A DNA stretch of 32,000 bases from Acaryochloris marina S15 (lineage in GTDB: Bacteria > Cyanobacteriota > Cyanobacteriia > Thermosynechococcales > Thermosynechococcaceae): assembly GCF_018336915.1 (NCBI RefSeq), contig NZ_CP064923.1, forward strand, positions 5,490,001 to 5,522,000, read 5' to 3'. Positions 3,362-23,460 of this stretch are shown here, in pieces (the stretch's first letter is position 1; each line of letters starts with the position of its first letter). The notes under the pieces were generated by a model, which ran no database searches, was not told where the DNA came from, and saw nothing but the letters and a program-made list of their open reading frames with translations. Made by a program: the position numbers and the translations under genes.

Positions 3362-3510
3362 GTCAGTTAATTCATACCTGTTAAGACTTGTGCTTTCTAA
3401 GGTTCATTTTTTTGTATCCACCAATACAACAATCAACCGATAGACTTGATATTTCTTGTATACATACTCTATTCATCAAAAAACAATAATTCCTTAAAAA
3501 ATACTTGTTT

Positions 3511-3636
3511 CTAGGGTTCCGATTTGAGTTCCGTCCTTACTTAAATGCCTGGTCCAAGAGAAACAGCTAGCTGCTTTCATACCTGTTTTATACCGGTTGG
3601 CAGTGAGTGACACGGAGGGATAAAAGCCCGGGAGAA
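3511..3636 (+). promoter_or_regulatory. guanidine-I riboswitch aptamer (ykkC-yxkD motif, subtype 1)
   Basis: The three conserved ykkC blocks are present in the right order and spacing: CTAGGGTTCCG (3511-3521), GGTCCAAGAG (3551-3560) and ACACGGAGGGATAAAAGCCCGGGAGA (3610-3635). It sits in the 5' leader of the operon that starts at 3787. Confidence 0.9.
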
Positions 3637-3688
3637 TGAACATTAACGCCGTATCCGTTAATGGTTGTCTCCGCGGGTTTTGTGTTTT
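3626..3688 (+). terminator. riboswitch expression platform: intrinsic terminator overlapping the aptamer 3' strand
   Basis: GCCCGGGAGA (3626-3635) pairs with TCTCCGCGGG (3668-3677), with one bulged G. The inner stem is ATTAACG (3642-3648) / CGTTAAT (3656-3662). The U-rich tract TTTTGTGTTTT (3678-3688) follows. Confidence 0.7.
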
Positions 3689-3786
3689 AAATGGACAGGG
3701 CTCATCTTCCTCTAAAATGACGAAGGAGAAACAACATCAATAAAGAAATTAGCTTGACGAAGTAAAAAACACATTTTCTCGATATT

Positions 3787-4983
3787 ATGGCTGAAAATCC
3801 GACCTTTGGTCCTCCAAACTCTAATCCTGATTTTTCTTCCACCGAGGCCAATCGTGCCTTAGAAAAAGAAGCACAACTCCCCCTCACAGGCTGGCAACAA
3901 GAAGTCGATCGAGGATTAGAACTGGGCTTAGAAGCAGCAGCTAGCATCCGGGATCGCAGCATTCCTACCTTCTCACGAGGAGAACTGCCCCACTATGCAG
4001 GTATCAACACCTTTCTCAAAGCGCCTTACCTAGAAGATGTGCGTAAAGTCGGTGAGTACGATATTGCTGTTGTGGGCGTTCCCCATGACTCAGGCACCAC
4101 CTATCGTCCCGGCACACGCTTCGGTCCTCAGGGCATTCGTCGGATTTCAGCCCTCTATACCCCCTACAATTTCGAGATGGGCATCGATTTGCGGGAGCAG
4201 ATTACCCTCTGTGACGTGGGCGATATCTTCACTATCCCCGCCAACAACGAAAAATCCTTTGACCAAATCTCTAAAGGAATAGCCCATATCTTCAGTTCTG
4301 GGGCTTTTCCCATTATTTTAGGAGGTGATCACTCCATTGGATTCCCCACCGTTCGCGGCGTCTGCCGCCATTTGGGAGATAAGAAAGTCGGTATCATCCA
4401 CTTCGATCGCCATGTGGATACCCAAGAAACCGACCTAGATGAGCGCATGCATACCTGTCCTTGGTTTCATGCCACCAACATGGATAACGCTCCCGCTAAA
4501 AACCTGGTACAGCTAGGCATCGGTGGTTGGCAAGTGCCTCGCCAAGGGGTCAAGGTCTGCCGAGAGCGAGCCACTAATATCTTGACCGTCACTGACATTA
4601 CCGAAATGGGTCTAGATGCTGCCGTTGACTTCGCCCTAGAAAGAGCCTTGGACGGCACAGACTGTGTGTATATCAGTTTCGACATTGACTGTATTGATGC
4701 CGGATTTGTCCCCGGTACCGGCTGGCCAGAACCCGGTGGTCTCATGCCCCGAGAAGCGCTCTATATGCTCGGTAAAATCATTCGACAAGCGCCCGTCTGT
4801 GGCCTGGAAATTGTCGAAGTTTCGCCCCCCTATGACGTCAGCGATATGACCTCTCTGATGGCCACGCGGGTGATCTGCGATACCATGGCCCATCTGGTTC
4901 TCTCTGGACAACTGCCCCGTCAGCAAACACCCGACTATATTCACCCTGAAGCCAATATGGCAGTGGGTTCTGAGTGGGTTTAG
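3787..4983 (+). CDS. gdmH: arginase/agmatinase-family ureohydrolase; probable Ni-dependent guanidine hydrolase (GdmH/Sll1077-like). Pipelines would usually call it agmatinase SpeB.
   Basis: 398 aa. All arginase-fold metal-ligand motifs are present: ILGGDHSIGFP, IIHFDRHVDTQ and YISFDIDCIDAGFVPGTGWPEPGG. It is the first gene after a guanidine-I riboswitch and is followed directly by HypA/HypB-like genes. Confidence 0.85.
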   Translation: MAENPTFGPPNSNPDFSSTEANRALEKEAQLPLTGWQQEVDRGLELGLEAAASIRDRSIPTFSRGELPHYAGINTFLKAPYLEDVRKVGEYDIAVVGVPHDSGTTYRPGTRFGPQGIRRISALYTPYNFEMGIDLREQITLCDVGDIFTIPANNEKSFDQISKGIAHIFSSGAFPIILGGDHSIGFPTVRGVCRHLGDKKVGIIHFDRHVDTQETDLDERMHTCPWFHATNMDNAPAKNLVQLGIGGWQVPRQGVKVCRERATNILTVTDITEMGLDAAVDFALERALDGTDCVYISFDIDCIDAGFVPGTGWPEPGGLMPREALYMLGKIIRQAPVCGLEIVEVSPPYDVSDMTSLMATRVICDTMAHLVLSGQLPRQQTPDYIHPEANMAVGSEWV

Positions 4984-4986
4984 GCC

Positions 4987-5367
4987 ATGCATGAAACAGA
5001 CATGACCAAGGCCCTGATCATGACGGTCAAAGATTGGTACGACTCCCAACCCGAAGATCCAAAAATCACCAAAATTCATTTGGTTGTCGGTCGGTTTACC
5101 TGTGTTGAACCCGTCAGCTTGCAGTTCGCCTATGAAGTTCAAACCCGTGACACTTTCTTAGCCGGGACAGAACTGGTGATTCGAGAAACGCCTTTAATCG
5201 CCTTTTGTCACCCCTGCCAAAAAGAATATTCCCCAGCCATCGGCTTGCAGTATTCCTGTCCTGACTGTGGAACGCCGATGGAAGACATCCGGTCCGGTCG
5301 CGAACTCAAAATTGACCATATCGAATATTGTTCTGATTCAGCCCAAGCTTATGCACCAAACTGTTGA
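4987..5367 (+). CDS. hypA: HypA-like nickel metallochaperone (GhaA-type accessory protein)
   Basis: 126 aa. Has the N-terminal MHE nickel-binding motif and two CxxC pairs (CHPCQ, CPDCG) forming the zinc site. The ATG is 3 nt after the upstream stop codon. Confidence 0.85.
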
Positions 5368-6049
5368 CGCCGCCCTAGGCATTAACCTCTTACATGCCAA
5401 TCAAGAAGGGGCCAATCACAACCAAGCACATTTTGATGAATGGGGGGTGACCTGTTTCAACATTATGAGCAGCCCTGGTGCAGGAAAAACGGTGCTGTTG
5501 GAGAAAACCCTAGCGGCTCTCAGCCCAGAACTCAAACTGGCCGTCATCGAAGGCGACATGACCACCGAATTGGATGCCGATCGATTACGGGCTTACGATG
5601 TCCCCGTGGTGGCCATTAACACCGGGCGATCCTGTCACCTTGACGCCAAGATGGTCGCGGGTGGCATCCACCAATTGGAGCATTGCACTAATCCTAGTGA
5701 ACTGGATTTAGTGCTGGTAGAGAATGTCGGGAACCTCGTATGTCCGGCAGAGTTTGAAGTAGGAGAGCATGCCAAAGTGGCCCTACTCAGCGTGACAGAG
5801 GGGGAAGATAAGCCGCTGAAATATCCCGTGATGTTTCAAGCAGCCGATTGTTTATTGGTGACCAAGATAGATTTAGTTCCCTATCTCAATATTGACATTG
5901 AGCAAATCAGCCAGAATGTCCGTCAGCTCAATCCCCATGCCACGATTATTCCGGTATCTGCACAAACAGGAGCAGGGCTTGCTGAATGGTATGAATGGGT
6001 GCGTCAACAGGTCGCCCAGCCGAGTCGGACTGCAGTCGGTCGTCATTAG
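5351..6049 (+). CDS. hypB: HypB-like nickel-dependent GTPase (GhaB-type accessory protein)
   Basis: P-loop SSPGAGKT, metal/switch motifs GRSCHLDA and [12 protein letters not shown], and specificity motif TKIDL. I place the start at ATG 5351 ([10 protein letters not shown]...), which overlaps hypA by 17 nt. The track start at 5267 would add 28 residues read out of frame across hypA. Confidence 0.85.
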
Positions 6050-6076
6050 TTGTTTGTAAGCAGGTAAAAGACTTCT

Positions 6077-7105
6077 ATGAAGCGAAGAAATTTTCTATCC
6101 TTATGTTTGGTATTTTTCTGCAGTTTGCTGCTGACCGTCAGCTGTAGCTCCTCACCCGAGACGACAACCGACTCTTCTGTCGGCTCAGGGGAGCCAGTTG
6201 TGATTGGTTACAGTAACTGGGCGGGTTGGTGGCCTTGGGCCATTGCCGAGCAAGAAGGGCTATTTGAAAAAAATAAGGCCAATATCAAACTCAAATGGTT
6301 TGATAATTACACCACTTCAATGGAAGCCCTGGCAGCGGGTCAATTAGACGGCAATTGCCAAACCCTCAACGATACGATTTCCTTTGCCGGCAGTGCCACC
6401 AAGGGAGAAGTCGCGGTCCTAGTCAATGACAACTCTGCTGGTAATGACAAGATTATCGTTACGGCCGATATTAATAGTATTCAAGACTTGAAAGGTAAGA
6501 AAGTTGCCGTTGAAGAAGGAGTAGTGGACGACTTTTTGTTGACCTTAGCCTTGGAAGAAAACGGCATGAAGCGAGACGATGTGGAGATCGTGGGCTTGGA
6601 AACGGGTAAGGCCGTGACTGCTTTTGTGGCAGGTAAAGTGGATGCAGTCGGGGCATTTCCCCCGTTCTGGGCAACAGCGTTAAAGCGGGAAGGCAGTAAA
6701 GAGCTGATCTCGTCCAAAGAGTTTCCGGGTGCCATTCCAGACTTGCTCGTGGTGACCCAAGATTTAGTGGATAATCGCCCCGATCAAGTGCAGGCCCTGG
6801 TAGATACTTGGTTTGATATCTTAGCCTTCATAGATAAAAATCCCCAAAAGGCTGATGAAATTATGGCGAAGCGGGCCGGGGTCTCTCTGGAAGAGATGAA
6901 GCAATTCAAAGAAGGAACGCGCTTCTTCTCCCTAGAAGATAATCTGGAAGCATTTTCGGATGGTGAAGACATGAAGCATATGCCCTTTGCTGCCAAACGG
7001 ATGGCTAAGTTTATGGTGGATGTCGAATTCATTAAAGAAGCACCGGATTTAACCCAAGTGCTGGATGACCAGTTTGTTAAGGCCTATCAAGCCAAGCAAG
7101 CATAG
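6077..7105 (+). CDS. ABC transporter substrate-binding protein, NitT/TauT (NMT1/SsuA-like) family, probable lipoprotein
   Basis: 342 aa. Signal peptide ends in LLLTVSC-SS (lipobox-like Cys). The overall pattern (IGYSNWAGWWPW..., KGKKVAV..G) is typical of nitrate/sulfonate/taurine-type binding proteins. Confidence 0.8.
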   Translation: MKRRNFLSLCLVFFCSLLLTVSCSSSPETTTDSSVGSGEPVVIGYSNWAGWWPWAIAEQEGLFEKNKANIKLKWFDNYTTSMEALAAGQLDGNCQTLNDTISFAGSATKGEVAVLVNDNSAGNDKIIVTADINSIQDLKGKKVAVEEGVVDDFLLTLALEENGMKRDDVEIVGLETGKAVTAFVAGKVDAVGAFPPFWATALKREGSKELISSKEFPGAIPDLLVVTQDLVDNRPDQVQALVDTWFDILAFIDKNPQKADEIMAKRAGVSLEEMKQFKEGTRFFSLEDNLEAFSDGEDMKHMPFAAKRMAKFMVDVEFIKEAPDLTQVLDDQFVKAYQAKQA

Positions 7106-7173
7106 TTCCCTTCTATTCCTGGAGCTAGTTCGCTCCAGGAATACCAGATTAGTCATGTGTCTCTGCAGCGATT

Positions 7174-8019
7174 ATGACCTCCAACTCGTCAGTTCCCCCA
7201 CCCCAACCGAACCATCAGTCTGGTGGATTAAAACCCACTATTTTTTGGCGTATTGCTGAGGACATTCCAGGGAATCTCAAGTGGGCCTTAATGGTGACTT
7301 CCATCGTTCTTCCCTTCGGACTTTGGTGGGGAATCGCTAGCACTGGAGTCGTTAATTCCGACTTCTTGCCATCTCCTACCCAAGTGGGTCAAGCCTTACG
7401 CGATCTCTACTCTGATGGCTTGCTCGTCCATGATACGTTGATGAGCTGCTTTAGGGTTGGGGTAGGTTTTCTACTCGCTGCAATTGTTTCTGCGCCTGTT
7501 GGCATAGCGATGGGGACATTTACCAGTATTCGGTCCTTATTGGAACCGATTATGGGCATTGTTCGTTATATGCCAGCGCCCGCCTTTACGCCCCTGTTAC
7601 TGATCTATTTAGGGGTAGATGAACGACCCAAAATCGCCCTCATTTTTATCGGTACGGTGTTTTTCAACATCTTGATGGTGATGGATGCCGTCAAGTTTAT
7701 TCCCAAGGAATTGCTGGAAACAACTTATACCCTAGGGGGAAGACGTCACCAAGTGCTCTTCCAGGTGATTACTCCCTATGTGATTCCCAATATTCTGGAT
7801 GCCTTTCGTGTCAATATGGCAGCCTCTTGGAATTTAGTCGTGGTTGCTGAATTAATTGCTGCAGAAGAAGGCTTAGGGAAACGCATTGCCATAGCTGAAC
7901 AGTTTTTCAGGACTGATACTATTTTTGCCTGCCTCATTGTGTTGGGACTGATTGGGTTTGGTCTAGATTTATTATTCCGCTGGCTACAACGTGCTGTCTC
8001 TCCCTGGGCAATCGACTAA
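7174..8019 (+). CDS. ABC transporter permease, NitT/TauT family
   Basis: 281 aa and multi-pass hydrophobic. The EAA-like loop region (AEEGLGKRIAIAEQFF) is typical of BPD_transp_1 permeases. Confidence 0.85.
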   Translation: MTSNSSVPPPQPNHQSGGLKPTIFWRIAEDIPGNLKWALMVTSIVLPFGLWWGIASTGVVNSDFLPSPTQVGQALRDLYSDGLLVHDTLMSCFRVGVGFLLAAIVSAPVGIAMGTFTSIRSLLEPIMGIVRYMPAPAFTPLLLIYLGVDERPKIALIFIGTVFFNILMVMDAVKFIPKELLETTYTLGGRRHQVLFQVITPYVIPNILDAFRVNMAASWNLVVVAELIAAEEGLGKRIAIAEQFFRTDTIFACLIVLGLIGFGLDLLFRWLQRAVSPWAID

Positions 8020-8028
8020 CTCATCACT

Positions 8029-8805
8029 ATGCACTTAGAAGTTTCCCATCTGTATAAGCATTTCTCGACTCGCCAGGGGAAACTGCTCGTTCTCAAAGAT
8101 ATTAATCTGCACGTGGAGACGGGAGAGTTTGTCTGTGCTGTAGGGGCATCAGGATCTGGCAAAACCACACTTCTACGTATGATAGCGGGGCTAGACGCCT
8201 CTACCTCAGGCAAAATCATGGTCGATGGTCAGCCCGTGATTGGTCCGGGTGCCGATCGCGGCATGGTGTTTCAAAGTTACACCCTCTATCCCTGGTTGAC
8301 AGTTGCCAAAAATGTGGGATTTGGCTTAAAACTGCAGGGGGTTGCTAAGCCCCTGCGCGCTAAGCGGGTGGCTGAATATCTAGATGTGGTGGGATTGACC
8401 CAGTTTGCCGATGCTTATCCCAGAGAGTTGTCAGGGGGGATGAAGCAGCGAGTTGCCATTGCCCGAGCATTGGCCTCACAACCCAAAGTATTACTGATGG
8501 ATGAGCCGTTCGGAGCATTGGATGTGCAAACGAAAGAAACCATGCAGCAGTTTTTGCTGAATTTATGGCGACGAACCGGCACCAGCATCTTAATGATTAC
8601 CCATGACGTAGACGAAGCTATTTTCCTGTCACAGCGCATTTACGTGCTCACGGCTCGCCCTGGTTCGGTCCAGCGAGAGATCTCGATTAACCTACCGACG
8701 GAACGGACTTACGCCGTCAAACGTCAGCCCTTATTTCAAGACTATCGAGATGAAATCATGGATCTGTTGCGGGAAACCCCAGAACTCCATCCAGTGATAG
8801 AGTAA
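8029..8805 (+). CDS. ABC transporter ATP-binding protein, NitT/TauT family
   Basis: Walker A GASGSGKTT, signature LSGGMKQR, Walker B LLMDEPF, H-loop ITHD. The ATG is 9 nt after the permease stop. Confidence 0.9.
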   Translation: MHLEVSHLYKHFSTRQGKLLVLKDINLHVETGEFVCAVGASGSGKTTLLRMIAGLDASTSGKIMVDGQPVIGPGADRGMVFQSYTLYPWLTVAKNVGFGLKLQGVAKPLRAKRVAEYLDVVGLTQFADAYPRELSGGMKQRVAIARALASQPKVLLMDEPFGALDVQTKETMQQFLLNLWRRTGTSILMITHDVDEAIFLSQRIYVLTARPGSVQREISINLPTERTYAVKRQPLFQDYRDEIMDLLRETPELHPVIE

Positions 8806-8812
8806 GGCTCAA

Positions 8813-9343
8813 CTATCCAGGTTGCCGCTCTAGGGTGGCTTCCATCGTATTGAGAAGATAATGCTCGCTCATCATGCCGCTCGATAAACGATAGCTATTA
8901 TCGGCAATGCGATGAATCGTTTCAAAACCACTACGGCGATCGCGATCGCCTAATACCCAAAACCGCTGGACAATAGATTCGGGACCAATCCAGCCTTCCC
9001 CTTCTACTTGGCCCAATTGGCTATGTTTGAGGACGTAAGTATACCGCTGGTCGTTACTGCCTAAACGTCCCCGATACTGCATGATAATTTCTGAGGTACC
9101 TTGACGGGCCACCGCCGACTCTTCAGGAAACAAAAGCTTGGTCGCCATGGTAAACCAGCTATCACAGTTCCATGCCACCAGGGTGCGGCCATGGATGGCA
9201 ACGGGATCTTGGTTACGTTCCATCCAAGTCCCTTTGAAAGTCCATCGGCCCGCATCTAATAAGAAGGTGTGAGCCGCAGCGCCTTTTTTCTCTGGCATTT
9301 CGTTAATGTAGGTGAATCTTTGTCCTTCTCTTAGGATGCCCAT
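8813..9343 (-). CDS. hypothetical protein (176 aa), no motif recognised
   Basis: Clean ORF 17 nt downstream of anmK on the same strand. Soluble-looking composition. The alternative-frame ORFs here are shorter. Confidence 0.6.
   Translation of the reverse strand: MGILREGQRFTYINEMPEKKGAAAHTFLLDAGRWTFKGTWMERNQDPVAIHGRTLVAWNCDSWFTMATKLLFPEESAVARQGTSEIIMQYRGRLGSNDQRYTYVLKHSQLGQVEGEGWIGPESIVQRFWVLGDRDRRSGFETIHRIADNSYRLSSGMMSEHYLLNTMEATLERQPG
8936..8949. repeat. tandem overlapping HIP1 octamers (GCGATCGCGATCGC)
   Basis: Two overlapping copies of the cyanobacterial highly iterated palindrome GCGATCGC. Single copies recur throughout the window. Confidence 0.9.
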
Positions 9344-9360
9344 TGGGTCAATCGTCTGGA

Positions 9361-10500
9361 TCAGACGAGGTGTAATTCTCCCAAGAGAACAGGGCCTTTT
9401 GCCCCGGTCACTGTGGGGACATTACCAGGGATTTTCAGCTGCCGCCAATAGGCCAATACCGCAAATGCGATCGCTTCTTTGGCATCAGCACTCAACCCTA
9501 AATCATCCGCTGTCAGCACGGGGCTACTCCCCACACGCTGTTGCAGGCACTGCCGTAAATACCCATTACGACTACCGCCCCCACACAGAACCACCTGATC
9601 AGGCGGATGGGGCAAAAACTGGTCGTAGTTGTAAACGATGGTTGCTGCCGTAAAGTCCGTCAGGGTAGCGAGCATATCGGCTGGACTGAGCTGATAGAGT
9701 GCCGCTGTTTGTAAACAGGTCTGCAAATAATCGGGGCTAAACAACTCTCGCCCCGTAGATTTAGGAGGTGGCTCTAGGAAAAAAGGATGCCGCAGCCATT
9801 CCTCAATCAGGGGCTGACAAGGCGTCCCCTGGGCAGCCCAGGCCCCATCGGCATCGTAGGTCAGTTCTCCTTTAGAAAAGTGAGCAACAGCCAAATCCAT
9901 CAAAACATTGGCAGGGCCTGTGTCCCAGCCTTTGACACCGACCCCCAGTTGGTTCCCATCCGCTAAGGGGGGCAGATAGGTAACGTTGCCAATACCGCCC
10001 ACATTTTGCACACAGCGGTAGAACTCGGGATGGCTGAGTAAACAAATATCCAGTTTGGAGACGAGGGGAGCGCCCTGACCGCCTGCTGCCATATCAGCGA
10101 CGCGAAAATTACTGACCGTATTGATGCTGGTTTGATAGGCAATCACAGCTCCCCGCCCCAATTGGAGGGTATAGCCCAGATTGTCTTGCGGGGGACGATG
10201 GAACACGGTTTGGCCGTGGGACCCAATCAGTTCGGCGGTCGGCGTTGCATCTGCCTGAATGGCTTGGGCCGCTTGAGAAAATTGAGTTGCGATCCCATCA
10301 TCCAGTACTGCCACCTCTTCGATACTCAAAGGCTGTCCCGCGCAAACCGCTAGAATTTGATCTCGGAGGGCATCGGGATAGGGATAGGTCTGGGACGCAA
10401 TCAGATCGACCTGTAAGTCTAGTTCCTGGCCGGAAATATCAACGAGGGCGGCATCAATGCCATCAACGGAGGTACCGCTCATCAAACCAATTACACGCAT
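9361..10500 (-). CDS. anmK: anhydro-N-acetylmuramic acid kinase
   Basis: 379 aa. The N-terminus [22 protein letters not shown] and overall length are characteristic of AnmK. The start is 2 nt downstream of the kinase gene stop. Confidence 0.9.
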
Positions 10501-10502
10501 GC

Positions 10503-12938
10503 TTACCCTTCTCCCAAAGAACGTAGAACACTGAGAACGTCGTTGTAACTCCCCGTTCGGCCTTGTGCAGCATAGAGATCGGCTGCTTTTTTTAGATCCG
10601 CAATGGCTTCCTTGCGTTTGTTTTGCACCGAATAAAGCAAGCCCCGTTTATAGTAATCTTCAGCCGCATCTGGCTTAATTCGCAGGGCATCACTGAGATC
10701 GCTTAAAGCCCCATCTAAATCTTTGAGCTGGATCTTGGCACTGGCACGGTTAGAGTAAGCCGCTTGACTCCGCACCTCACTGTTGCGAGTGTCATTAATT
10801 TTGATCGTGCGCCCATAGTCTTGGATCGCCTTTTCATACTGCTTTAATCGCAGATAAATATTGCCCCGCACCGTATGTAGGGCAGCACTGCTGGGGTTAA
10901 TCCCTAAGCCTTTGTTGCAGTCTTCGAGGGCGCGCTGTAGTTCATTGAGGGAAAATAAGGCCCCACAACGATTATTGAGGACAAAGGGATCTTTAGGATT
11001 AATGGCAATGGCGCGATCATAATCTTTGAGTGCACCTTCAAAATCCGCTGGCTGACCTTGGTAGGCACGCAGTTCACCCCTCAGCAAATAGGCGTTGGTA
11101 GAGTTGGGATTAATCTTTAGAGCCTGATCAAAGGATTTACGAGCTTGCTCGATTTCACCCTGTTCATAGAAGACACCTCCCAGATTGGTATGGGCACGGG
11201 TGAGCTGAGGGTTAATGCTCAGAGCCTGATTGTAATCTGCGATCGCATCTTGTTTTTGATTCAACCTAGAGTTGGCATAGCCCCGACTCGTATAGTCTTT
11301 CGCCGTTCGTACTGACAGTTCTAGGGCGCGTTCCCAGTCTTGTTCTGCTCCATCTTGGTCCCCCAGAACCGAACGATAGCTACCTCGGTTCACATGGGCT
11401 GATAAATGATTGGCATCCGCTTGGATAGCCTTATCTAGTTCTTTGACCGCCGCTTCCAGCTTCCCCTGGACAAAAAATACAGAGCCTAAATTGAGATAGC
11501 CTTGGGCCTGGTTGGGTTGGAGACGAATGGCTTGACGATAATCGGCAATGGCCTCCTCATACTTACCCATTTCTACCTGGGCATCTCCCCGATGGTTATA
11601 AGTTTCCGCATCCTTGGAGTCGAGAGAAAGGGCTTCGTTATAGTCTGCGATCGCAGTTTGGTATTCCCCAGTGGCAAAGTGAATTTCGCCTCGTTCTCGA
11701 TAGGCCGCTGCGGTTTCTGGCTGCTGCTCTAACAAGGTATCGAACTGGGCGATGGCGTCCGGGTATTTTCCAATCTCACCATAGGTTTCGCCTAATTTAA
11801 GCGCTGCTTCGGTGTAATCATCTTTTAGCGCTAAGGCCTGTTCAAAATTCTCCGTGGCAGACCGCCAGTTCCCCGATTGGGCCGCCTGCTGACCCCAGAA
11901 ATAATGCCATTGGGGACGGAAGAGAAAAAAGAGACTTGTGGATGCGATCGCAACGCCACCCACCCCTAACCCAATCCACTTCAACCGCCGTTTAGGCTGC
12001 TGGGTCTGGAGCGCAGGCTCAGCCGGAGAGGGCTCAGGGACTGCTGGCGGAGGTGAAGGGGCTGCAGGAGCAACTTCATCTTCAGCCGAGGGATGGGAGA
12101 GCACCGTGCTGGCTTGAGCCACAGACTGTAATGCCGTTCGCATAGCTGCCACCGTGGCAAACCGATGTTTCGGATGGGGTTTAACCAGTTGATCCAGCAA
12201 ACTTCTAAAGGGGGAGCTCAGATGCTGGCAATCCTGCTTCCACAGCAATCGTCCCGTCGCACTATCCGTTTCAAACTGATCGGGGAACTTGCCCGTCAGC
12301 AAATAAATCGCCGTTAAACCCAAACTATATAGATCGCTGGCAAACGTAGGTCGCCCCGCTGCCTGCTCTCTGGGCATAAAGCCAAGGGTGCCAATTACAA
12401 TCGAGCGACTGGGCTGTCCTTGAGCATTGATTTGGGTAGCCATCACTTCCTTGACGGCACCAAAATCAATCAGACAAGGCTGTTGATCAGCATTACGAAC
12501 AATAATATTGTCGGGTTTAATATCTCGGTGAATAATGTTGTGGCCATGAATGTAATTGAGCACATTGATAATCTGATAAAGCAGCTTGATCACCTCTGCT
12601 TCATTCAGTGAGCCTTGGGCGGTGACAATTTCCGTGAGGGTCTGGCCTTCAATCCATTCCTGCACCAAATTAAATTGCCCAGTTTCTTCAAAGTAAGCAA
12701 ATAGATCGGGAATTTGAGGATGCCCTTGGCCAATTCGTTCTAAGATGGCCGCTTCTCGCTGAAATCGTTCTAAAACAATTTTCTGCACCCGATCATTGTT
12801 AAGCACAGGTTTGAGCTGTTTAATCACACAAAATCGCCGAGATGGCATTTGCTCATCTTCAGCTAAGAAGGTTTTACCGAATCCCCCTTCATTTAATGCC
12901 TTGAGGATACGATATCGGCCATTAACAAGTCCTACCAT
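10503..12938 (-). CDS. membrane-anchored Ser/Thr protein kinase with C-terminal TPR repeats
   Basis: Hanks kinase motifs: [32 protein letters not shown]. These are followed by a Pro-rich linker, one TM segment ([20 protein letters not shown]) and ~12 TPR-like repeats. Confidence 0.9.
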
Positions 12939-12991: not shown

Positions 12992-13876
12992 TCATGCCGA
13001 TAGGGTAACCTGCATTCGCTTCTGTTGCCGTAAATAGCCATGCAAGATTTCAGCATCCATACCGTGGAGCATCAGCCGAAAGCCAGCATGCAGCGTAATT
13101 AACGGAATACAGGGATGACGATTGTTGACTAAGCTCAAGGCCGTCGGATCTTGTAACAACTTGCTAATGTAAATGGCGATGGTTTCATCTAGCTGCAACG
13201 AATTGGTGGCCCGCCAAAAATCATGATCGGATAAAAACAAAGCATAGACTGGTGTATACGCCTCAATGGCAGATTGCAAATCCACAAAATTAGTCCATCG
13301 TTGGCATCCAGGATTGATCTCAAATTCTCCATCCGTAATCGCGTCAAAGTTGAGGCTTTGAGGGGCCTCTAGCGTCCGATTCTCAGCCTTGAGCTTTTGA
13401 TTCAACTCAATAATAAAGTTGTAAATATTCAAATCGTGAATCAGGAAGGTATTGGCCTTCAAATCTTCTAAGCAGGTGGGGCGCAAGGATTGGGTAGACG
13501 TAATCTCGACCCCAGCATTATCGGCAATAAACTTGAGAATCTCCGTCCCAATCACGAAATGCCGCAAAATCAGATAATTACTATCGGGGGTCACAAAGTA
13601 CTTCAACCCCCAATAAATAAGCTGATGCAGCAGCCGAGACGAGCTTAACCATTCGGGGATCACGATTCGTAGTAGCTTCACCACCACAATCATCAGCTTG
13701 GCCAACGGGCGCACAAAGGGCAAAAAGATCCGGCGGGAGCGGCTGTTGTGGCCCCTCAGCAATGCCCGCTTAGATTCATCGTGAAGGGGCAAACTGGCAT
13801 CCAAATAGAGCGCCAGCCAAGGATTGGGGTCTTTGATATTAATGATTTGTTGATCAAACTCTGTCTGCCAACTCAT
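12992..13876 (-). CDS. hypothetical protein (294 aa from the ATG), third gene of the KAS III / HDO operon
   Basis: ATG at 13876 shares its A with the upstream TGA (TGATG). The track start at 13879 is a TTG one codon earlier. I recognise no catalytic motif. There is one hydrophobic stretch (FLPFVRPLAKLMIVVVKLLRIVIP). Confidence 0.65.
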   Translation of the reverse strand: MSWQTEFDQQIINIKDPNPWLALYLDASLPLHDESKRALLRGHNSRSRRIFLPFVRPLAKLMIVVVKLLRIVIPEWLSSSRLLHQLIYWGLKYFVTPDSNYLILRHFVIGTEILKFIADNAGVEITSTQSLRPTCLEDLKANTFLIHDLNIYNFIIELNQKLKAENRTLEAPQSLNFDAITDGEFEINPGCQRWTNFVDLQSAIEAYTPVYALFLSDHDFWRATNSLQLDETIAIYISKLLQDPTALSLVNNRHPCIPLITLHAGFRLMLHGMDAEILHGYLRQQKRMQVTLSA

Positions 13877-14577
13877 CAATAATGTCCTAGTTCTTCTAGC
13901 TGTAAGAGATATAACCGAGCGGTAACTTTGGCGGTGCGGACAATCGCCTCATCCATTCCTGTTATATCCAAAATTGAGCTAGCCAGCAGATCTTCGAGTT
14001 CTTGCAGATGATCTTCATCATGGGCTGCATGATAGCGATAGAACTCTAGCTGATCTGGATCGGTGATTAAGGGGTTTTCGTCTAAGGCATTGGCAAAGGT
14101 TTGGGCGAACCGCTTTCCTAAGCCCTCGATCACAAACATGGCCCCCAACAGATCGAAGGGGTTGGGCTGAGATGCCCGTTGATACATCCAGGCTGAAAGC
14201 GCTTCGGACCCAATATTTTTGTGCGCCCCTATCAATTCGGCTTTTTGGCCCCCGGAGGCTAGATAACTTTTCTCCAGCATTTGATAGTCAAGATGTTCTG
14301 TGGCCGCATGGCGGATAAAGACAGAACGCTGGTCCAGATATGGCGCTGTAATCGAAGAGGCTGCTCGGCTAATCCAGCCGCTGCCTTCCACCACCTGCTG
14401 GTAATGATCGCTAATTAAGGTGAGATAATCTGCTAGCCTGAGCTGCTGCTGCATTGCTCGGGCGACAATCGGTACTTTTAACAACCGACTTTCAAAATCG
14501 GCCCATACCATCGTTAACTGGCGCAGCACTCGCTGGGACTGGGTGACGTTGCTGTGAAGTCGAGGTTGGGTTTGCAT
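13876..14577 (-). CDS. heme-oxygenase-like fold, iron-containing redox enzyme family protein (HDO/Haem_oxygenase_2-like)
   Basis: 233 aa and predicted all-helical. Candidate metal ligands are RHAATEH, VIEGLG and HAAHDEDH (H-x3-D-x2-H, as in CADD/UndA-type diiron enzymes). The start is 4 nt after the KAS III stop. Confidence 0.65.
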   Translation of the reverse strand: MQTQPRLHSNVTQSQRVLRQLTMVWADFESRLLKVPIVARAMQQQLRLADYLTLISDHYQQVVEGSGWISRAASSITAPYLDQRSVFIRHAATEHLDYQMLEKSYLASGGQKAELIGAHKNIGSEALSAWMYQRASQPNPFDLLGAMFVIEGLGKRFAQTFANALDENPLITDPDQLEFYRYHAAHDEDHLQELEDLLASSILDITGMDEAIVRTAKVTARLYLLQLEELGHY

Positions 14578-14581
14578 GAAA

Positions 14582-15706
14582 TTACACCACTGTTAAATGC
14601 ATAAAGGCCGCAATACAGCGCCCACTTTCGGGTACAAAGCAGAGGATCCGTTGTCCAGGCTGCAAAGACTGTTGCTGAACCAGCTCCTCTAGCATGATAA
14701 AGATGGAGGCCGTCCCGGTATTGCCATAGCGTTCTAGGTTATTGAACCATTTTTCTTCCGCAATCATGGCTCCTGTGCGAAGCAGCAATCGCTTCATCTC
14801 TTCGCCTAGGGAGTGGGAAGAATAATGGGGTAAAAAATAATCGATGGCATTGGGATCCAGATCGTATTTCTCTAGCAGCTCCAGATAGTAGCCAACCCAA
14901 ACCGGAAACATGGCGTAGAGAATATCAAAGTCTTGCTTAAGGGCAATGGCACCCGCTTCATAGGCCGCCTGGGGAGATTCATATAACCCCCATCCCAGAT
15001 CGTCCGTATTGCTTTTAGCCCCGGCATACATACAGGGTGGGAACCGGTCGGCAAAGGACTTAAACTGAATCCAATCAATCCGCAAGGACACTCCATCGGG
15101 CTTAGGATTGGGCTCTAAGACTACAGCTCCTGCCCCATCGGAGAGGGTCCATCGCAAGAACTCGATTTGTGGATCGGGCCTGGCATCTTGATCGTAAAAA
15201 GGCTGATAGACCTTAGGGCGAAACCAGCGGCTCGCAAATTCACTCCCGCTCGCGACTGCCAGCTGAGACTCGCTCACTTTGACATTGAGCCAGGCATTTT
15301 TAACCGCCATCAGACTGCTGGCACAAACACTCTGAAATGAAAAAATTGCTAGCGGTGGAATACCTAGCTCACCATGGACTGCACTCGCAAACCCTGGCAC
15401 CAGATAATCCCCTTGGGTGGTACTCGTTGCTAGCAGATCCACCTGTTCGGGCTGGCAACGAGCTTGTTTAAGAGCATCATGAATGGCATTCGCCGCCATC
15501 CCTGCGTTGGTATATCGGTAGCCACCTGCTGTATCTAGGGCGTAGAAGCGCTGCTTAATCCCATTTTTGCGCAAGATAGCGGATCCTAGGGTTGAGCTAC
15601 GCTTACTAATACTGCCGATGTACGCCGCCATATCCGCGTTGGCAACGGGCTCTCCTGGCAAAAATTTGCCGACTCCAGTGATGTAAACCTCTTGGCAAGG
15701 AGACAT
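14582..15706 (-). CDS. beta-ketoacyl-ACP synthase III (FabH)-like condensing enzyme
   Basis: Thiolase-fold KAS III pattern with a candidate Cys-His-Asn triad: FQSVCASS, FLPHYSSH, YGNTGTASI. I prefer ATG 15706 (MSPCQEVYITG...) over the track TTG at 15712. Confidence 0.85.
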   Translation of the reverse strand: MSPCQEVYITGVGKFLPGEPVANADMAAYIGSISKRSSTLGSAILRKNGIKQRFYALDTAGGYRYTNAGMAANAIHDALKQARCQPEQVDLLATSTTQGDYLVPGFASAVHGELGIPPLAIFSFQSVCASSLMAVKNAWLNVKVSESQLAVASGSEFASRWFRPKVYQPFYDQDARPDPQIEFLRWTLSDGAGAVVLEPNPKPDGVSLRIDWIQFKSFADRFPPCMYAGAKSNTDDLGWGLYESPQAAYEAGAIALKQDFDILYAMFPVWVGYYLELLEKYDLDPNAIDYFLPHYSSHSLGEEMKRLLLRTGAMIAEEKWFNNLERYGNTGTASIFIMLEELVQQQSLQPGQRILCFVPESGRCIAAFMHLTVV

Positions 15707-15714
15707 GGGCAACG

Positions 15715-15741
15715 CTGACTCAGGAGTCAGTCACAGGTGAC
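15715..15741. promoter_or_regulatory. two abutting palindromes directly upstream of the KAS III-like start codon
   Basis: CTGACTC-AG-GAGTCAG (15715-15730) is followed immediately by GTCAC-AG-GTGAC (15730-15741). Function unknown. Confidence 0.25.
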
Positions 15742-18857: not shown

Positions 18858-20051
18858 TTAGTCCGGTAAGTCATATTGACTGACAATGCGCTTGGCGTAT
18901 TCAGGCACATGGGCATCTACCTTATCAGGATAGTTACGCTTCACATACAGGTAGTTACGGGTAAAGTGCGAATCAATCGAGAACCGCGCATATTCTAAAC
19001 CTCGGGGACCAATCTTGTCGATCACCACCCCCATCAGTTTCGCCGCCCACATGGGCAAGGTCACCCCCTTATCATAGGCAGGGATGCTGTTTTGCACCGC
19101 CGCATGGCGATCGCCTTCAGAAATTACAGGCTGGGTTTCCAGCTGATCCATCACCAGATCCAGCATTTCCTGGCCCGTCTCGTTGCGCACCACAATCCAC
19201 TGCCAGCCGTAGGGAGAACCCATATAACCCACCACAAGATCCGCCAGGGAATTCGTGTAGTCAAAACAGCTCATGCAGGAAGGGGCAAAAATGTCTTTGA
19301 GTTTATTGGTCTTCAAACCAAAAAAGGGCACCATCTCAATCGACCCATCTTCATGCTTGAAGTGGATACGGAAGTCCTGCATAAATTCATAATGGACAAC
19401 CGTTTCTGGGGAACGACTCGTGGTGTCTAAGAAGGTCTGCAACCCTGCTCGATTCACGTTGTCTACGCAGGGCGTCCCCAGCACATAGAGTTTCTCAAGC
19501 CCTAAGCTATCCTGAACCGACCGTAAAGCTTGGGTTTGGCACCCTACTCCAATCACACAGAGGCGCTTCATGCCCGACTGTTCAATCTGCTCTAGCACCG
19601 AGAGATTGGGAGATAGCGTGGGCTTATTCACCCGAGCCGCCAACACTTCTTCTGGGGTACGGGCAATAATCGGCTTGGGTTGAAATCGATCTTCATCCGT
19701 ATTTTGGATACAGACAACGCCCTCAACTTTGCCCTGCTTCAGCAGTTCCATGCCGATGGTGCTGACAATCCCCGTCCATTGCGCCCCCGGAATGGGATCG
19801 ACCTTGCGGGCCGTCATCATTTGGTTGCTGACCCCGAAGTACCAATCATCTTCGTTATCCAAGTCACGGCTGCGGCCATGGGCTTTTTCTTCCAGCTCAG
19901 CCACCTGCTGATTTAAGAAGGCACAGGCTTCCTTAACGTAGTGAATGTAGTAGGTATCGCAAAGACCACATTCACTACAGAGTTCTTTAGCCGGTCGGCG
20001 ACTCGTGGATTTGAGGGCTTTGGCTTTTTTATGGGGTTGTACCGCAGTCAT
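18858..20051 (-). CDS. coenzyme F420 hydrogenase/dehydrogenase beta-subunit family Fe-S flavoprotein (HCAR / BciB-like chlorophyll-intermediate reductase)
   Basis: 397 aa. The N-terminal Cys cluster CSECGLCDTYYIHYVKEAC and the overall FrhB_FdhB N+C architecture resemble plant 7-hydroxymethyl chlorophyll a reductase and cyanobacterial ferredoxin-type divinyl reductase. Confidence 0.8.
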   Translation of the reverse strand: MTAVQPHKKAKALKSTSRRPAKELCSECGLCDTYYIHYVKEACAFLNQQVAELEEKAHGRSRDLDNEDDWYFGVSNQMMTARKVDPIPGAQWTGIVSTIGMELLKQGKVEGVVCIQNTDEDRFQPKPIIARTPEEVLAARVNKPTLSPNLSVLEQIEQSGMKRLCVIGVGCQTQALRSVQDSLGLEKLYVLGTPCVDNVNRAGLQTFLDTTSRSPETVVHYEFMQDFRIHFKHEDGSIEMVPFFGLKTNKLKDIFAPSCMSCFDYTNSLADLVVGYMGSPYGWQWIVVRNETGQEMLDLVMDQLETQPVISEGDRHAAVQNSIPAYDKGVTLPMWAAKLMGVVIDKIGPRGLEYARFSIDSHFTRNYLYVKRNYPDKVDAHVPEYAKRIVSQYDLPD

Positions 20052-20190
20052 AGTTAAATTAGGGTTTCAGTACTCCGAAGCAAGCGCAAAGTACCGAATT
20101 GAATGGTTATCTCGCATTCCGATTGTAAACAGTTTCGGGACCGCACCCCAAGTCCCCCCAGTTTTTCCTTTGATGACTGATTTTTAGAGG

Positions 20191-21729
20191 TCAATCATTA
20201 TGGGCATGATCAAATTCATAGACATAAAACATGCGGCTAAAGCGCTGGAGTAAATAGCCCCCTGTCGCTAACACCACACTGCAAAGCGCTAACTCCCAAA
20301 ACTCAGGCGGGGGAGTCATTAAGAATAAAGAAGTATCAGAATGAGTGATGGCGTATAGGGCTTGCGATCGCGCATCCAGCATCACCCCCAATCCAAAACA
20401 AACCACTGCGCTAATCAACATCACGATTTTCAGCTGTTGAATCCGTTTCAAGGCTTGGCGGCAAACTTGGCAATCTTTAGTGTGGGTGTGCCAAACATCA
20501 AAGAGCTGTTCTTTATCTCGCTGAGGGGGAGGGAGCTGGGGGTCACATTGCCAGGGAATCCCTCCGCCTGCTCGGGTTTTGATCCACTGCCGCAGGGCAA
20601 TCACCATTTTGTCTTGGGGATTAGGGGTATAGACCGTCTCTAGCCAATTTCCCTGCTCCTGATGCCCAATTCGTTTTTCCTGATAGTGGAGAAACACTAA
20701 ATCTTGATGGAGGAATAGGGGGGCCAATACATGGCCTAACCATTTCGGCATCGGCCAAGCAAAAAAGCCCAACCCAGGGGGCGCTTTCCCATCCTTATCT
20801 TTAATCAAGACTTGGCAGCCAATGTGGCGACACCAACCGGGACGAGTGGGACTGGCATAGAGTGCCAAAATCATTTGCCCCTCTCTCGCAAAAGTGGTTT
20901 CAATCCGCATATGACAAGGAGGCTGAAAATTGTGGACTGCCTTTCTTAAAATCGTATTGGAGACGGGTGTGATGTTAAAGGCAAAGCCTTCTTGAGTCGA
21001 GACTTCTCGCACCGCACTCATATCGTAATAATTGGCATCCCGATAGCGATTACCCATAATGCCGTGATGGGAGACAGGGACATGGGCCGGGTCCGCAATA
21101 TTTTCCATAAAAAAGTCCCAGCCATAGGGCAAGTCTCGCACATACCAAAACAGCTTAATGGCCCGATCGGGCAACTCTTCTAGCTCCGGGATAATCCGAG
21201 GAGAACGCTCCTGGCTGAGGGACTGGGAGGCCTCACTATTATCTGGCCACACCCAAATTAAACCCTGCTGAACTTGGGTCGGATAGGCGATGGCACACGA
21301 TCGCGGATTGGCTCGATGCTGTTTAGCCGTCTCTAAATCCAGACTTTGAGGAATATCTAAGCAGTGGCCCTCACCATCAAATCGCCAGGCATGATACGCA
21401 CACATCAAAGTGCCATCTACTTCGATCCGTCCTTCGGATAGCGGTGCAAGGCGATGAGGACAGCGATCTTCAAAACAATGCCATTCTCCCTGCTGATCAT
21501 GCCAAATCACCAGATCTTTTCCCAATAGCTGAATGGCATGAGGGCTTTTCGGATCCAAAAACTCAACCACTGCCACTGGATACCATTGCTGTGTCCATTG
21601 AAATTGTTCAGGTGTAGCGGTTTCAGCTTCTGCAACGGAGGGGGCGGTCTCTACCTGCTGAGATGAATCGTGGGTGGGATCAAGGGACAAGCGGTTTTGA
21701 GTCGTCACTGTCTTAACAATTGCGCTCAC
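20191..21729 (-). CDS. Rieske [2Fe-2S] non-heme iron oxygenase, pheophorbide a oxygenase (PAO/Tic55/LLS1)-like
   Basis: Rieske motif CPHRLAPLSEG ... CAYHAWRF, mononuclear iron region DPAHVPVSHHG, C-terminal CxxC (KDCQVCRQA) and two terminal TM helices, as in PAO-family proteins. GTG start. Confidence 0.85.
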   Translation of the reverse strand: MSAIVKTVTTQNRLSLDPTHDSSQQVETAPSVAEAETATPEQFQWTQQWYPVAVVEFLDPKSPHAIQLLGKDLVIWHDQQGEWHCFEDRCPHRLAPLSEGRIEVDGTLMCAYHAWRFDGEGHCLDIPQSLDLETAKQHRANPRSCAIAYPTQVQQGLIWVWPDNSEASQSLSQERSPRIIPELEELPDRAIKLFWYVRDLPYGWDFFMENIADPAHVPVSHHGIMGNRYRDANYYDMSAVREVSTQEGFAFNITPVSNTILRKAVHNFQPPCHMRIETTFAREGQMILALYASPTRPGWCRHIGCQVLIKDKDGKAPPGLGFFAWPMPKWLGHVLAPLFLHQDLVFLHYQEKRIGHQEQGNWLETVYTPNPQDKMVIALRQWIKTRAGGGIPWQCDPQLPPPQRDKEQLFDVWHTHTKDCQVCRQALKRIQQLKIVMLISAVVCFGLGVMLDARSQALYAITHSDTSLFLMTPPPEFWELALCSVVLATGGYLLQRFSRMFYVYEFDHAHND

Positions 21730-22021: not shown

Positions 22022-23460
22022 GCTTTTGACCGCTTCGTTCCACTCACAGTCAAAAGCAGAATATAAGGAGCGTGACCGCAGGAAACATATTCTAGGGAGT
22101 AAAGCTACATTCCCTAAATTTGTTAAAATCAACTTATGCTCGTAATGAACTACCGATACAGGATCTACCCAAATTTTGAGCAAGAACAGCAAATGCTGAG
22201 CTGGCTTGAGACGTGCCGCAGGGTTTTTAACTATGCCCTGCGAGAACGTAAAGACTGGATAAATTCTCGGAAGTGTCCAGCAGATCGATGCTCTTTGCAG
22301 TCCGAATATATCGTTGCGGCTGATGCCCCTTACCCTAGCTATTACGCTCAGAAAAAAGGATTGGCAGTCGCAAAGAAAGAGAATAACTGGCTTAAAGCTG
22401 TCCATTCTCAAGTATTGCAAGAGGTCATTGGACAACTGGATGGGGCATTTACATCTATGAAGGAAAGAGGTCATGGCTTCCCACGCTTTAAGAAGTTTGG
22501 GCAGTATCGATCCTTTCTCTTTCCTCAATTCAAGAGCAGCCCCATCCAAGGTAGACAAATTAAGCTGCCCAAAATTGGGCTGATGCCCATTGTCTTCCAT
22601 CGGCAAATACCAGATGGTTTTGCGATTAAGACAGTGCGAGTCATTCGTAAGCATTCTGGGTGGTATATCTCCCTGTGCTTGGTGGCAGATGTGTCTATCC
22701 CAGAGGTGCCGCCTCACGGTCGGTCCATAGGTATAAACGTAGGGCTGAGCTATTTCCTGAGTACCAGTGATGGCGAACAGGTTGATAGACCTCGCTTTTT
22801 CGACAAACTTCACCGCAAGCTGGAATTGCTGCAACGATGTTTGAAGCGGAAGCAAAAACGGTCTAATAATCGTGCCAAGCTGATTCAGAGAATAGGGCGA
22901 GTCCATGAACAAATTGCGGCATCTCGGCTGGACTGGCAATTTAAGCTGGCTCATCACTTGTGTGACCAAGCTCAGATGATCTTTGCTGAGGATTTGGACT
23001 TCCGAATCATGGCAAAAGGCTTGTTGGGCAAACATACTCTTGATGCAGGGCTTGGGCAATTCCTGAATGTGGTTTTGCCTTGGGTTTGCTTCAAGCGTGG
23101 AGTTTACTATGCCAAGGTTGACCCTAATGGTACGTCTCAAGAATGCCCTGACTGTGGAGCCAGGGTAAAGAAAGACCTAAGTACGAGGATTCATGAGTGT
23201 CATGAGTGTGGGTCTGTAAAGCCTAGAGATGTTGCCAGTGGTCAAGTTATCAATGCCCGTGGTCTATCGGGTATTCAAACTGCAAGTGGACGGGATCTAT
23301 CGGGGTATCAGGAGACTGATGCTAGACAAGACCGAACGAAGCTTGAAGAACTCAAGAGTAATCTTGAGAAGCCCGCGCTCTATGCGTCAGCATGAGCGTC
23401 GGGAGAAGTCACACTCGCTTATTCTCTATTTCGTTGTCCACCCTCAACCTAAAGTGACTC
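22022..23460 (+). mobile_element. IS200/IS605-family (IS1341-like) element carrying tnpB only; ends not defined
   Basis: tnpB ORF with no tnpA nearby. A subterminal hairpin GCTTTTGAC (22022-22030) / GTCAAAAGC (22049-22057) lies ~80 nt upstream of the ATG. The structured 3' region extends to the next gene. Boundaries are approximate. Confidence 0.6.
22136..23395 (+). CDS. tnpB: IS200/IS605-family transposase accessory protein TnpB (RNA-guided nuclease family), RuvC-I Asp replaced by Asn
   Basis: 419 aa. Typical N-terminus YRYRIYPNFEQEQQMLSWLETCRRVFNYAL, RuvC-II IFAEDL, zinc ribbon CPDCG...CHECG and RuvC-III PRDVASGQVI. The RuvC-I motif reads GINVGL (AAC at 22736-22738) where GIDxG is expected. 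Confidence 0.85.
   Translation: MLVMNYRYRIYPNFEQEQQMLSWLETCRRVFNYALRERKDWINSRKCPADRCSLQSEYIVAADAPYPSYYAQKKGLAVAKKENNWLKAVHSQVLQEVIGQLDGAFTSMKERGHGFPRFKKFGQYRSFLFPQFKSSPIQGRQIKLPKIGLMPIVFHRQIPDGFAIKTVRVIRKHSGWYISLCLVADVSIPEVPPHGRSIGINVGLSYFLSTSDGEQVDRPRFFDKLHRKLELLQRCLKRKQKRSNNRAKLIQRIGRVHEQIAASRLDWQFKLAHHLCDQAQMIFAEDLDFRIMAKGLLGKHTLDAGLGQFLNVVLPWVCFKRGVYYAKVDPNGTSQECPDCGARVKKDLSTRIHECHECGSVKPRDVASGQVINARGLSGIQTASGRDLSGYQETDARQDRTKLEELKSNLEKPALYASA

Follow-up and report, generated by a model that had tools for sequence, protein, structure and literature searches.

This report concerns three adjacent genes on the minus strand of a 32,000-nucleotide (nt) stretch of the Acaryochloris marina S15 genome (contig NZ_CP064923.1 of assembly GCF_018336915.1, positions 5,490,001–5,522,000), which is referred to below as the window. 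The genes encode a ketosynthase/cyclase resembling StlD and DarB (KS), a candidate heme-oxygenase-like dimetal oxidase (HDO) and a protein of the DUF6999 family. Together they form one functional unit, most likely a self-contained and horizontally transferable biosynthetic cassette whose product would be an oxidised lipid-like molecule. The course of reactions that we favour, tentatively and at a little short of even confidence, is a head-to-head fusion of two acyl thioesters derived from fatty acid synthase (FAS), followed by an O2-dependent oxidation by the HDO and then by a step carried out by the DUF6999 protein. The three genes, in the order of transcription, are as follows.

14582..15712, minus strand: StlD/DarB-like ketosynthase/cyclase (KS), 376 amino acids (aa), from the open reading frame (ORF) list, NCBIfam and a PDB profile match.
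13876..14577, minus strand: candidate heme-oxygenase-like dimetal oxidase (HDO), 233 aa, from Pfam PF14518 and an AlphaFold2 (AF2) model searched with Foldseek.
12992..13876, minus strand: DUF6999 protein, 294 aa, all-helical, from Pfam PF22523 and an AF2 model.

These are genuine genes rather than ORFs that arose by chance, since each of the three proteins has hundreds to thousands of homologs at 50–70% identity in other phyla. A preliminary description of this DNA had reported three packed genes with a 4-nt gap and a 1-nt overlap, and the junctions, read directly from the sequence, agree with it: the KS stop codon TAA is followed by 4 nt (tttc) and the ATG of the HDO gene, and the TGA of the HDO gene shares 1 nt with the ATG of the DUF6999 gene (TGATG). 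The end coordinate that it gave for the block, 15741, is a minor error, lying 29 nt past the most upstream possible start codon (15712). The ORF list places the third ORF at 12992–13879 (295 aa), counting from an upstream TTG at 13879; the true start is most likely the ATG at 13876, because of the TGATG overlap and because homologs likewise begin with MSWQ. Judging from locus coordinates, stop/start overlaps between HDO and DUF6999 genes are also seen in other loci in which the genes are split.

The strongest sign that the three genes belong together is their arrangement in other genomes. About 80 DUF6999 loci were retrieved, 74 of them with upstream DNA; 79 loci were clustered for accessory genes, and 85 trio loci were searched for genes of acyl carrier proteins (ACPs). 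In all 74 loci with upstream DNA, DUF6999 is directly preceded by KS and HDO, with one shared orientation and an unchanging order, and a reverse check anchored on the HDO recovered the full trio in three of three loci (Micavibrio, Pleionea and Rhizomicrobium). KS and HDO are joined in one polypeptide of about 615–685 aa, with the HDO at the C-terminus, in 44 of the 74 loci, and are separate genes in the other 30. That the trio works as a single functional unit, as the preliminary description had proposed, is supported by this arrangement. The three proteins also co-diverge, as their pairwise divergences are correlated (Spearman 0.46–0.72). Even a divergent trio on plasmid pTHAF3_a of Pseudoalteromonas sp. 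THAF3 (locus L089, 4436–9544), whose KS is only 42% identical, has the same architecture; it is flanked by hypothetical proteins of 185 and 634 aa. Two very long KS-HDO ORFs (1059 aa in locus L067 and 751 aa in L042) were searched for extra domains, of which none were found, so that misassigned start codons in high-GC genomes probably explain their length.

At least 596 species genomes carry a DUF6999 gene. Among the matches listed, the hosts are Alpha-, Beta- and Gammaproteobacteria, Acidobacteriota, Rhodothermales, Melainabacteria, Myxococcota (Sorangium, Myxococcus, Corallococcus), Paenibacillus and Cohnella, and Acaryochloris is the only oxygenic cyanobacterium among them with the cassette. 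The preliminary description had suggested that cyanobacteria be compared for conservation of the trio; the synteny does hold in other genomes, but the trio is not a cyanobacterial feature and occurs widely among Proteobacteria, Myxococcota, Acidobacteriota and Paenibacillus. A metagenome-assembled genome (MAG) of Acaryochloris has the same locus at 95% identity. The next-closest homologs of all three proteins, at about 70% identity, come from marine Gammaproteobacteria (Spartinivicinus, Endozoicomonas, Microbulbifer) and not from cyanobacteria, and these relationships point to a horizontal acquisition of the cassette in Acaryochloris.

The KS can be placed rather precisely. Its best NCBIfam model is NF005293, the StlD/DarB family beta-ketosynthase (370.4 bits, E 1e-110); the same model gives 600 bits for a true DarB (locus L090) and 372 bits for the KS of the divergent Pseudoalteromonas trio. 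The closest solved relative is StlD itself (PDB 5gk0), which matches over the full length (residues 7–376) at E 1e-73, while PDB entries of OleA-type thiolases reach only about E 1e-4. The FabH models TIGR00747 and NF006829 give 85 and 100 bits, below their cutoffs of 292 and 249. The triad C130, H296 and N331, located in the motifs SVCASS, PHYSSH and GNTGTAS that had been pointed out earlier and are all found in the translation, is invariant in 74 of 74 homologs, and E158, which aligns with Glu154 of StlD, is kept in 73 of the 74. The position of StlD Ser340 is less constant: true DarBs have Ser, the homologs have Ser (34), Ala (31), Cys (6) or Thr (3), and the KS of the window has Thr. In the 2016 work of Mori et al., Glu154 is reported to be the catalytic base and Ser340 reportedly belongs to a water-activating network. 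On these sequence comparisons we assign the KS to the StlD/DarB neighbourhood of non-elongating head-to-head ketosynthase/cyclases and not to diverged FabH. The earlier label of a KAS III-like condensing enzyme therefore stands as regards the complete Cys-His-Asn triad and has to be narrowed to a StlD/DarB-type enzyme as regards the family. The simple beta-keto intermediate proposed along with it is given up, because the chemistry expected of a StlD/DarB-like KS is the joining of two acyl chains.

The second protein matches Pfam PF14518 (“iron-containing redox enzyme”) at 36.9 bits, above the gathering cutoff of 28.9. Its AF2 model (pLDDT 91.8) is closest in Foldseek to 3dde (TM score 0.81) and CADD (about 0.8), with UndA and TenA lower. 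Seven candidate metal ligands, H90, E94, D97, E151, H183, D187 and H190, are invariant in 76 of 76 homologs, whether fused, split or divergent, and they sit on the helices where the general pattern of His and carboxylate ligands on the core helices of HDOs places them (PMC11363339). The last three make up the HAAHDEDH motif singled out in the preliminary description. The spacing of 32 residues between E151 and H183 and the H-x3-D-x2-H motif agree with CADD; the equivalence with CADD is drawn from this spacing and from the fold match, and in the profile search 3dde was detectable and CADD was not. The CADD model TIGR04305 gives 18.2 bits against a cutoff of 200. On its modelled fold and ligand set, the protein is assigned to the heme-oxygenase-like oxidases, as a putative dimetal enzyme with a fold closest to CADD and 3dde, in line with the HDO-type metalloenzyme suggested before. 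An identity as TenA/thiaminase II, the alternative named at that time, was considered and rejected: there is no TENA_THI-4 (PF03070) Pfam match and no invariant Cys among 32 aligned homologs, TenA structures rank below 3dde and CADD, and the full ligand set is kept. As a separate observation, the HDO of the Pseudoalteromonas plasmid falls under every Pfam and NCBIfam threshold, yet it keeps all seven ligand residues.

With these two assignments at hand, one may ask whether the trio could be nothing but chance neighbours, that is, a housekeeping FabH paralog, a TenA/thiaminase-like or CADD-like folate-related protein and a hypothetical protein. Some databases do label the KS “beta-ketoacyl-ACP synthase III”, and the weak CADD match together with the TenA structures among the fold matches could be read in this way. 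Against this, the FabH and CADD models fall well short of their cutoffs, and the HDO has neither the Pfam match nor the invariant Cys of TenA. The universal synteny and the KS-HDO fusion, recurring across phyla, effectively refute the idea, and we leave it hardly any chance.

The third protein had been taken for an “orphan” that would serve as scaffold or carrier. It is in fact a member of DUF6999 (PF22523; 391.9 bits over profile positions 3–275 of 275), a family of about 2,900 sequence clusters, and it is the most conserved of the trio, with pairwise identities that average 55% and go no lower than 42%. R106, H107, H148, D149, D231 and R268 are invariant in 81 of 81 homologs, and H85, H255, H272, E277, R223, N226 and Q229 are near-invariant, a pattern which suggests an active site rather than a scaffold. 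Its conservation, the highest in the trio, and its invariant His, Asp and Arg residues fit an enzyme. A hydrophobic helix at about residues 51–75 (Kyte-Doolittle 19-residue mean 1.84) may mediate membrane association. The AF2 model (pLDDT 89.8) is all-helical; Foldseek found no match for it in PDB and BFVD (best E about 1, TM score at most 0.2), and a profile search of 1.8 billion representative proteins returned DUF6999 members only and linked no other family. We also considered DUF6999 as a cryptic DarA (hhalign 0.4% against a DarA candidate) and as a divergent HDO (hhalign 2% against the HDO family) and rejected both. Apparent fusions of DUF6999 to GATase, GH20 and caspase domains carry truncated domains and look like assembly chimeras, and an HDO-DUF6999 “fusion” (P0397) holds sequence that looks out of frame. 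In the Pseudoalteromonas trio the DUF6999 protein deviates at near-invariant positions (H85Q, E206A, R223D). The most divergent member (locus L086, 6001–6927; 152 bits on the Pfam model) is solitary, located between an aldo-keto reductase gene and a beta-lactamase-family gene without KS or HDO, and may belong to a sub-clade with a different role.

The genes around the cassette are informative both for what is absent and for what recurs. An ACP-like ORF occurs in none of the 85 trio loci, in a search that recovered the ACPs of the canonical DarB loci L090 and L093 as positive controls, and no gene for a DarA/StlC aromatase is present in the window. The trio is thus a DarB-like KS without its usual aromatase and ACP partners, accompanied instead by two non-homologous proteins. 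All-against-all clustering gave no accessory family in more than 12 of the 79 loci, the most frequent being generic kinases, short-chain dehydrogenases/reductases and ATP-binding cassette (ABC) proteins. In 16 loci of Acidobacteriota and Myxococcaceae, a gene for a membrane fatty-acid desaturase (PF00487, about 270–295 aa) separates KS-HDO from DUF6999 and has the same orientation as these. A FA_hydroxylase gene (PF04116) adjoins the cassette in four loci, directly upstream in some, and lies downstream of DUF6999 in one other, while genes for PlsC/Aas-type acyltransferases, major facilitator superfamily (MFS) transporters and alpha/beta-hydrolases recur in a few loci only. These desaturase, hydroxylase, acyltransferase, MFS and hydrolase neighbours all point to long-chain acyl substrates.

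Some of these neighbourhoods deserve a separate mention. Regions that illustrate the short, weakly DesA-like desaturase insert, with the FA_hydroxylase gene directly upstream in some loci, are 9155–9982 in L025, 7159–8031 in L055, 9150–9962 in L029, and 9062–9949 and 6509–7261 in L040. In Sneathiella (L004, 2746–8894), genes for a TetR regulator, a PlsC-type acyltransferase, an LplT-like MFS protein and an alpha/beta-hydrolase precede the trio on the same strand, and in Micavibrio (L094, 1–6613) an Aas-like acyltransferase/AMP-binding gene and a DUF2339 gene lie upstream of it. Both contexts hint at a tie to (lyso)phospholipid remodelling in a few lineages.

The same neighbourhoods bear on whether the trio might break compounds down rather than make one. 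In such a catabolic or detoxifying role the thiolase-fold KS would run a retro-Claisen reaction, and the HDO would cleave or oxidise an exogenous compound of the alkylresorcinol or cyclohexanedione type. The varied surroundings, which do not resemble a biosynthetic gene cluster and have no consistent transporter or regulator, are compatible with this, and the occasional alpha/beta-hydrolase and MFS genes would fit uptake and degradation. However, the characterised relatives of StlD and DarB are all biosynthetic, the cassette is not accompanied by genes for a coenzyme A ligase or for beta-oxidation, and sequences so strongly conserved from phylum to phylum agree with one conserved product. Such a role seems to us very improbable.

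Starting from what is observed directly, namely the gene organisation, family assignments, residue conservation, synteny, fusion and the lack of ACP and DarA, we infer the substrates, order of steps, reactions and product of a biosynthetic pathway as follows. In the first step, for which homology is the guide, C130 of the KS would be loaded with a FAS-derived acyl thioester and would join it head-to-head with a second acyl thioester. By analogy with StlD and DarB, the two may be a beta-ketoacyl and a 2-enoyl thioester, giving a carboxy-dialkylcyclohexanedione or a close relative. FAS supplies both of these thioesters to DarB-type enzymes (PMC6836626), and StlD is a non-elongating ketosynthase/cyclase that takes unsaturated partners only (bioRxiv 10.1101/2022.10.20.513026). 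Both KS substrates would come from primary metabolism, because no dedicated ACP is encoded. In the second step the HDO, which in most lineages forms the C-terminal part of a fusion with the KS, would take the KS product directly and oxidise it with O2; the most economical reaction would be an UndA-like oxidative decarboxylation or desaturation by which the ring is aromatised, and the HDO would thereby be a non-homologous replacement of the flavodoxin-like aromatase DarA. In the third step the DUF6999 protein would perform a further obligatory reaction of unspecified chemistry, possibly as a new His/Asp-based (metallo)enzyme at the membrane surface. The membrane fatty-acid desaturase or hydroxylase encoded within or next to the cassette would, in the lineages that have it, modify the alkyl chains.

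Several points weigh against this scheme. The KS lies below the curated NF005293 cutoff (370.4 versus 450 bits) and is about 39% identical to bona fide DarB, and the variable residue at the Ser340 position may mean that its condensation or release chemistry differs from that of StlD. The authors of a 2019 review suspect that the products of DarA-less DarB homologs are not carboxy-cyclohexanediones (PMC6836626). No gene for a reductant partner of the HDO lies in the vicinity, and the KS-HDO fusion shows coupling but not the direction in which an intermediate is channelled. Finally, one trio locus comes from an anammox Brocadiaceae MAG, an odd host for an O2-dependent pathway, and contamination of the MAG is possible.

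Part of this evidence can be claimed by the main rival, a non-cyclising condensation followed by an UndA-like decarboxylation. Here the KS would catalyse a head-to-head Claisen condensation of the OleA, NocG or PpyS type to a 2-alkyl-3-keto acid or pyrone, the HDO would convert it to a long-chain ketone, enone or alkene, and DUF6999 would finish the product. The fold of the HDO resembles that of UndA, a fatty-acid oxidative decarboxylase, the desaturase and hydroxylase neighbours fit a long-chain lipid, and both the sub-cutoff score of the KS and its variable Ser340 position are compatible with a reaction of this kind. So is the reviewers' doubt about carboxy-cyclohexanedione products of the DarA-less Acaryochloris clade (PMC6836626), and NocG-type KSs are known to form linear beta-keto acids from two acyl-ACPs (PMC10088813). 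Yet the cyclase StlD is by far the best characterised match of the KS, many orders of magnitude in E value ahead of the OleA-type thiolases, the Glu aligned with Glu154 of StlD is almost always kept, and UndA stands behind CADD and 3dde among the structural neighbours of the HDO. We regard the non-cyclising route as unlikely.

The order of the steps could also be reversed, so that the HDO acts first on a fatty acyl chain by desaturation, hydroxylation or C-C cleavage and provides an unusual donor or acceptor for the KS, with DUF6999 acting last. The coupling by gene fusion leaves room for this, and HDOs of the UndA and BesC type do act on simple acids (PMC11363339). FAS, on the other hand, already delivers the beta-ketoacyl and 2-enoyl thioesters that the KS would need (PMC6836626). 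The order of genes and domains, moreover, is always KS, HDO, DUF6999. The known HDOs use free acids or amines as substrates and are not known to act on ACP thioesters. A reversed order appears quite improbable, and we retain condensation first and oxidation second as the preferred sequence.

In the window itself, the trio is followed downstream by a Ser/Thr kinase with tetratricopeptide repeats (TPR) and by AnmK, and a divergent TPR protein lies upstream; as the preliminary description had observed, no ACP, ligase, thioesterase or regulator gene adjoins. The kinase, with about 12 TPR repeats, is encoded together with AnmK at 9361–12938 (minus strand). Only 53 nt separate DUF6999 from the start of the kinase gene, which has the same orientation, and another 2 nt lie between the kinase gene and AnmK, so that in Acaryochloris the trio may be co-transcribed with both. 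Similar kinase genes clustered in only 8 of the 79 trio loci, so that the link to the kinase is probably incidental. Scans of the surrounding DNA for promoters and terminators did not exceed the shuffled expectation, and an Rfam search gave no RNA element near it.

Other parts of the window hold systems of their own. At 3500–8805 (plus strand), a Guanidine-I riboswitch (RF00442, 71 bits; 3500–3636) lies upstream of an arginase-family gene (3787–4983), which is followed by a small ORF and by genes for a CobW/HypB/UreG-type GTPase, an NMT1-like binding protein, an ABC permease and an ABC ATPase. The set has the look of a system already known, in which the riboswitch controls a Ni-dependent guanidine hydrolase, the accessory proteins of this enzyme and an importer for guanidine. 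At 18858–21729 (minus strand), a FrhB/FdhB-like protein, possibly similar to 7-hydroxymethyl chlorophyll a reductase, is encoded beside a Rieske/PaO-family oxygenase, and DUF3611 and DUF1823 genes typical of cyanobacteria precede this pair. An IS605-family OrfB/TnpB gene (PF01385, PF12323, PF07282) occupies 22136–23395 (plus strand) and overlaps a 401-aa ORF on the opposite strand.

The wider interest of the cassette comes from a question left open in the literature. The 2019 review of cyanobacterial alkylresorcinols lists DarB homologs that are “DarA-less”, among them a clade of two Acaryochloris strains, and gives their products as not known (PMC6836626), and a review from 2023 still describes the products of such homologs as unclear (PMC10088813). 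Our own literature search for DUF6999, KS-HDO fusions and related combinations found no paper on the cassette, in agreement with the preliminary description, to whose author no characterised pathway with this trio was known. The Acaryochloris case now turns out to be one instance of a widespread and rigidly conserved KS-HDO-DUF6999 module, which gives the DarA-less DarB question a concrete, compact and expressible three-gene system. Heterologous expression should be easy, given the small size of the cassette and its independence of any dedicated ACP or ligase. To HDO enzymology the trio brings a domain architecture and a class of substrate that are both new, and DUF6999, whose predicted fold matches nothing solved, gains a strong functional context. 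It is conceivable, although we see the balance as leaning against it, that the cassette is an unrecognised and widespread three-enzyme pathway for one conserved lipid-like molecule, with the first KS-HDO fusion enzyme, an HDO acting as O2-dependent aromatase/decarboxylase on a DarB-type product, and a DUF6999 protein that founds a new enzyme fold, possibly with a new His/Asp metal site. If true, this molecule, perhaps a signal, an antioxidant or a membrane component, would be common to Acidobacteriota, Myxococcota, Paenibacillus, many Proteobacteria and Acaryochloris.

Among known systems, the nearest relatives of the trio KS are those of the dialkylresorcinol and bacterial stilbene pathways DarAB(C) and StlCDE, in which DarB/StlD is the ketosynthase-cyclase, DarA/StlC the aromatase and DarC/StlE the ACP. 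The trio KS is about 39–45% identical to them over the full length and shares with them the triad and the Glu at the base position. A canonical DarB locus on a Burkholderia plasmid encodes a 318-aa DarA candidate with a flavodoxin-like N-terminus and a hydrophobic tail, then the KS scoring 600 bits on the StlD/DarB model, then acpP, and this DarA candidate is unrelated to the HDO or to DUF6999 (hhalign below 1%). In a DarB locus on a Streptomyces plasmid the order is ACP, KS, a hypothetical protein and tailoring enzymes. Unlike these systems, the trio has a sub-cutoff KS with a variable residue at the Ser340 position and neither a flavodoxin-like DarA/StlC aromatase nor an ACP; its KS is paired, and often fused, with a dimetal-type HDO, and DUF6999 always comes next. 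The cyanobacterial Brt system resembles the trio KS in that there are no elongation partners and FAS intermediates are presumably the source, and it also lacks a dedicated ACP, a component common in such clusters though not present in all. A further DarB-like ORF, unannotated and 43% identical to the KS of the window, is found downstream of a cytochrome P450 gene on plasmid pNFSY08 of Nostoc flagelliforme (L092, 6001–7113); no DarA, HDO or DUF6999 is annotated around it, and it could be a pseudogene or one more type that lacks DarA. OleA, CorB/MxnB, PpyS and NocG likewise join two acyl chains without malonyl extension on a Cys-based thiolase fold, but they are far more distant in sequence, have other partners and lead to olefins, pyrones and beta-keto acids.

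The HDO shares with CADD, UndA, BesC, SznF, FlcD/E and AetD the PF14518 family, the seven-helix fold and a set of His and carboxylate residues on three core helices including H-x3-D-x2-H. None of the characterised HDOs is close in sequence; 3dde, which matches best at that level, is uncharacterised. The trio HDO has H-x3-E-x2-D on its first core helix in place of the usual E...H pair, and its substrate is presumably a lipid-derived KS product and not an amino acid or a free fatty acid. No HDO fused to a KS turned up in the literature that could be searched. UndA, which has the same heme-oxygenase-like fold (TM score about 0.65–0.7), provides a precedent for the O2-dependent oxidative decarboxylation of a lipid carboxylate, but it is a stand-alone enzyme for free C10–C14 acids with no KS or DUF6999 partner, and its structure matches less closely than those of CADD and 3dde. 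Taken against these systems, the head-to-head lipid fusion of the DarB type is the known part of the cassette, and its new element is the partner enzymes, one of which has an unsolved fold.

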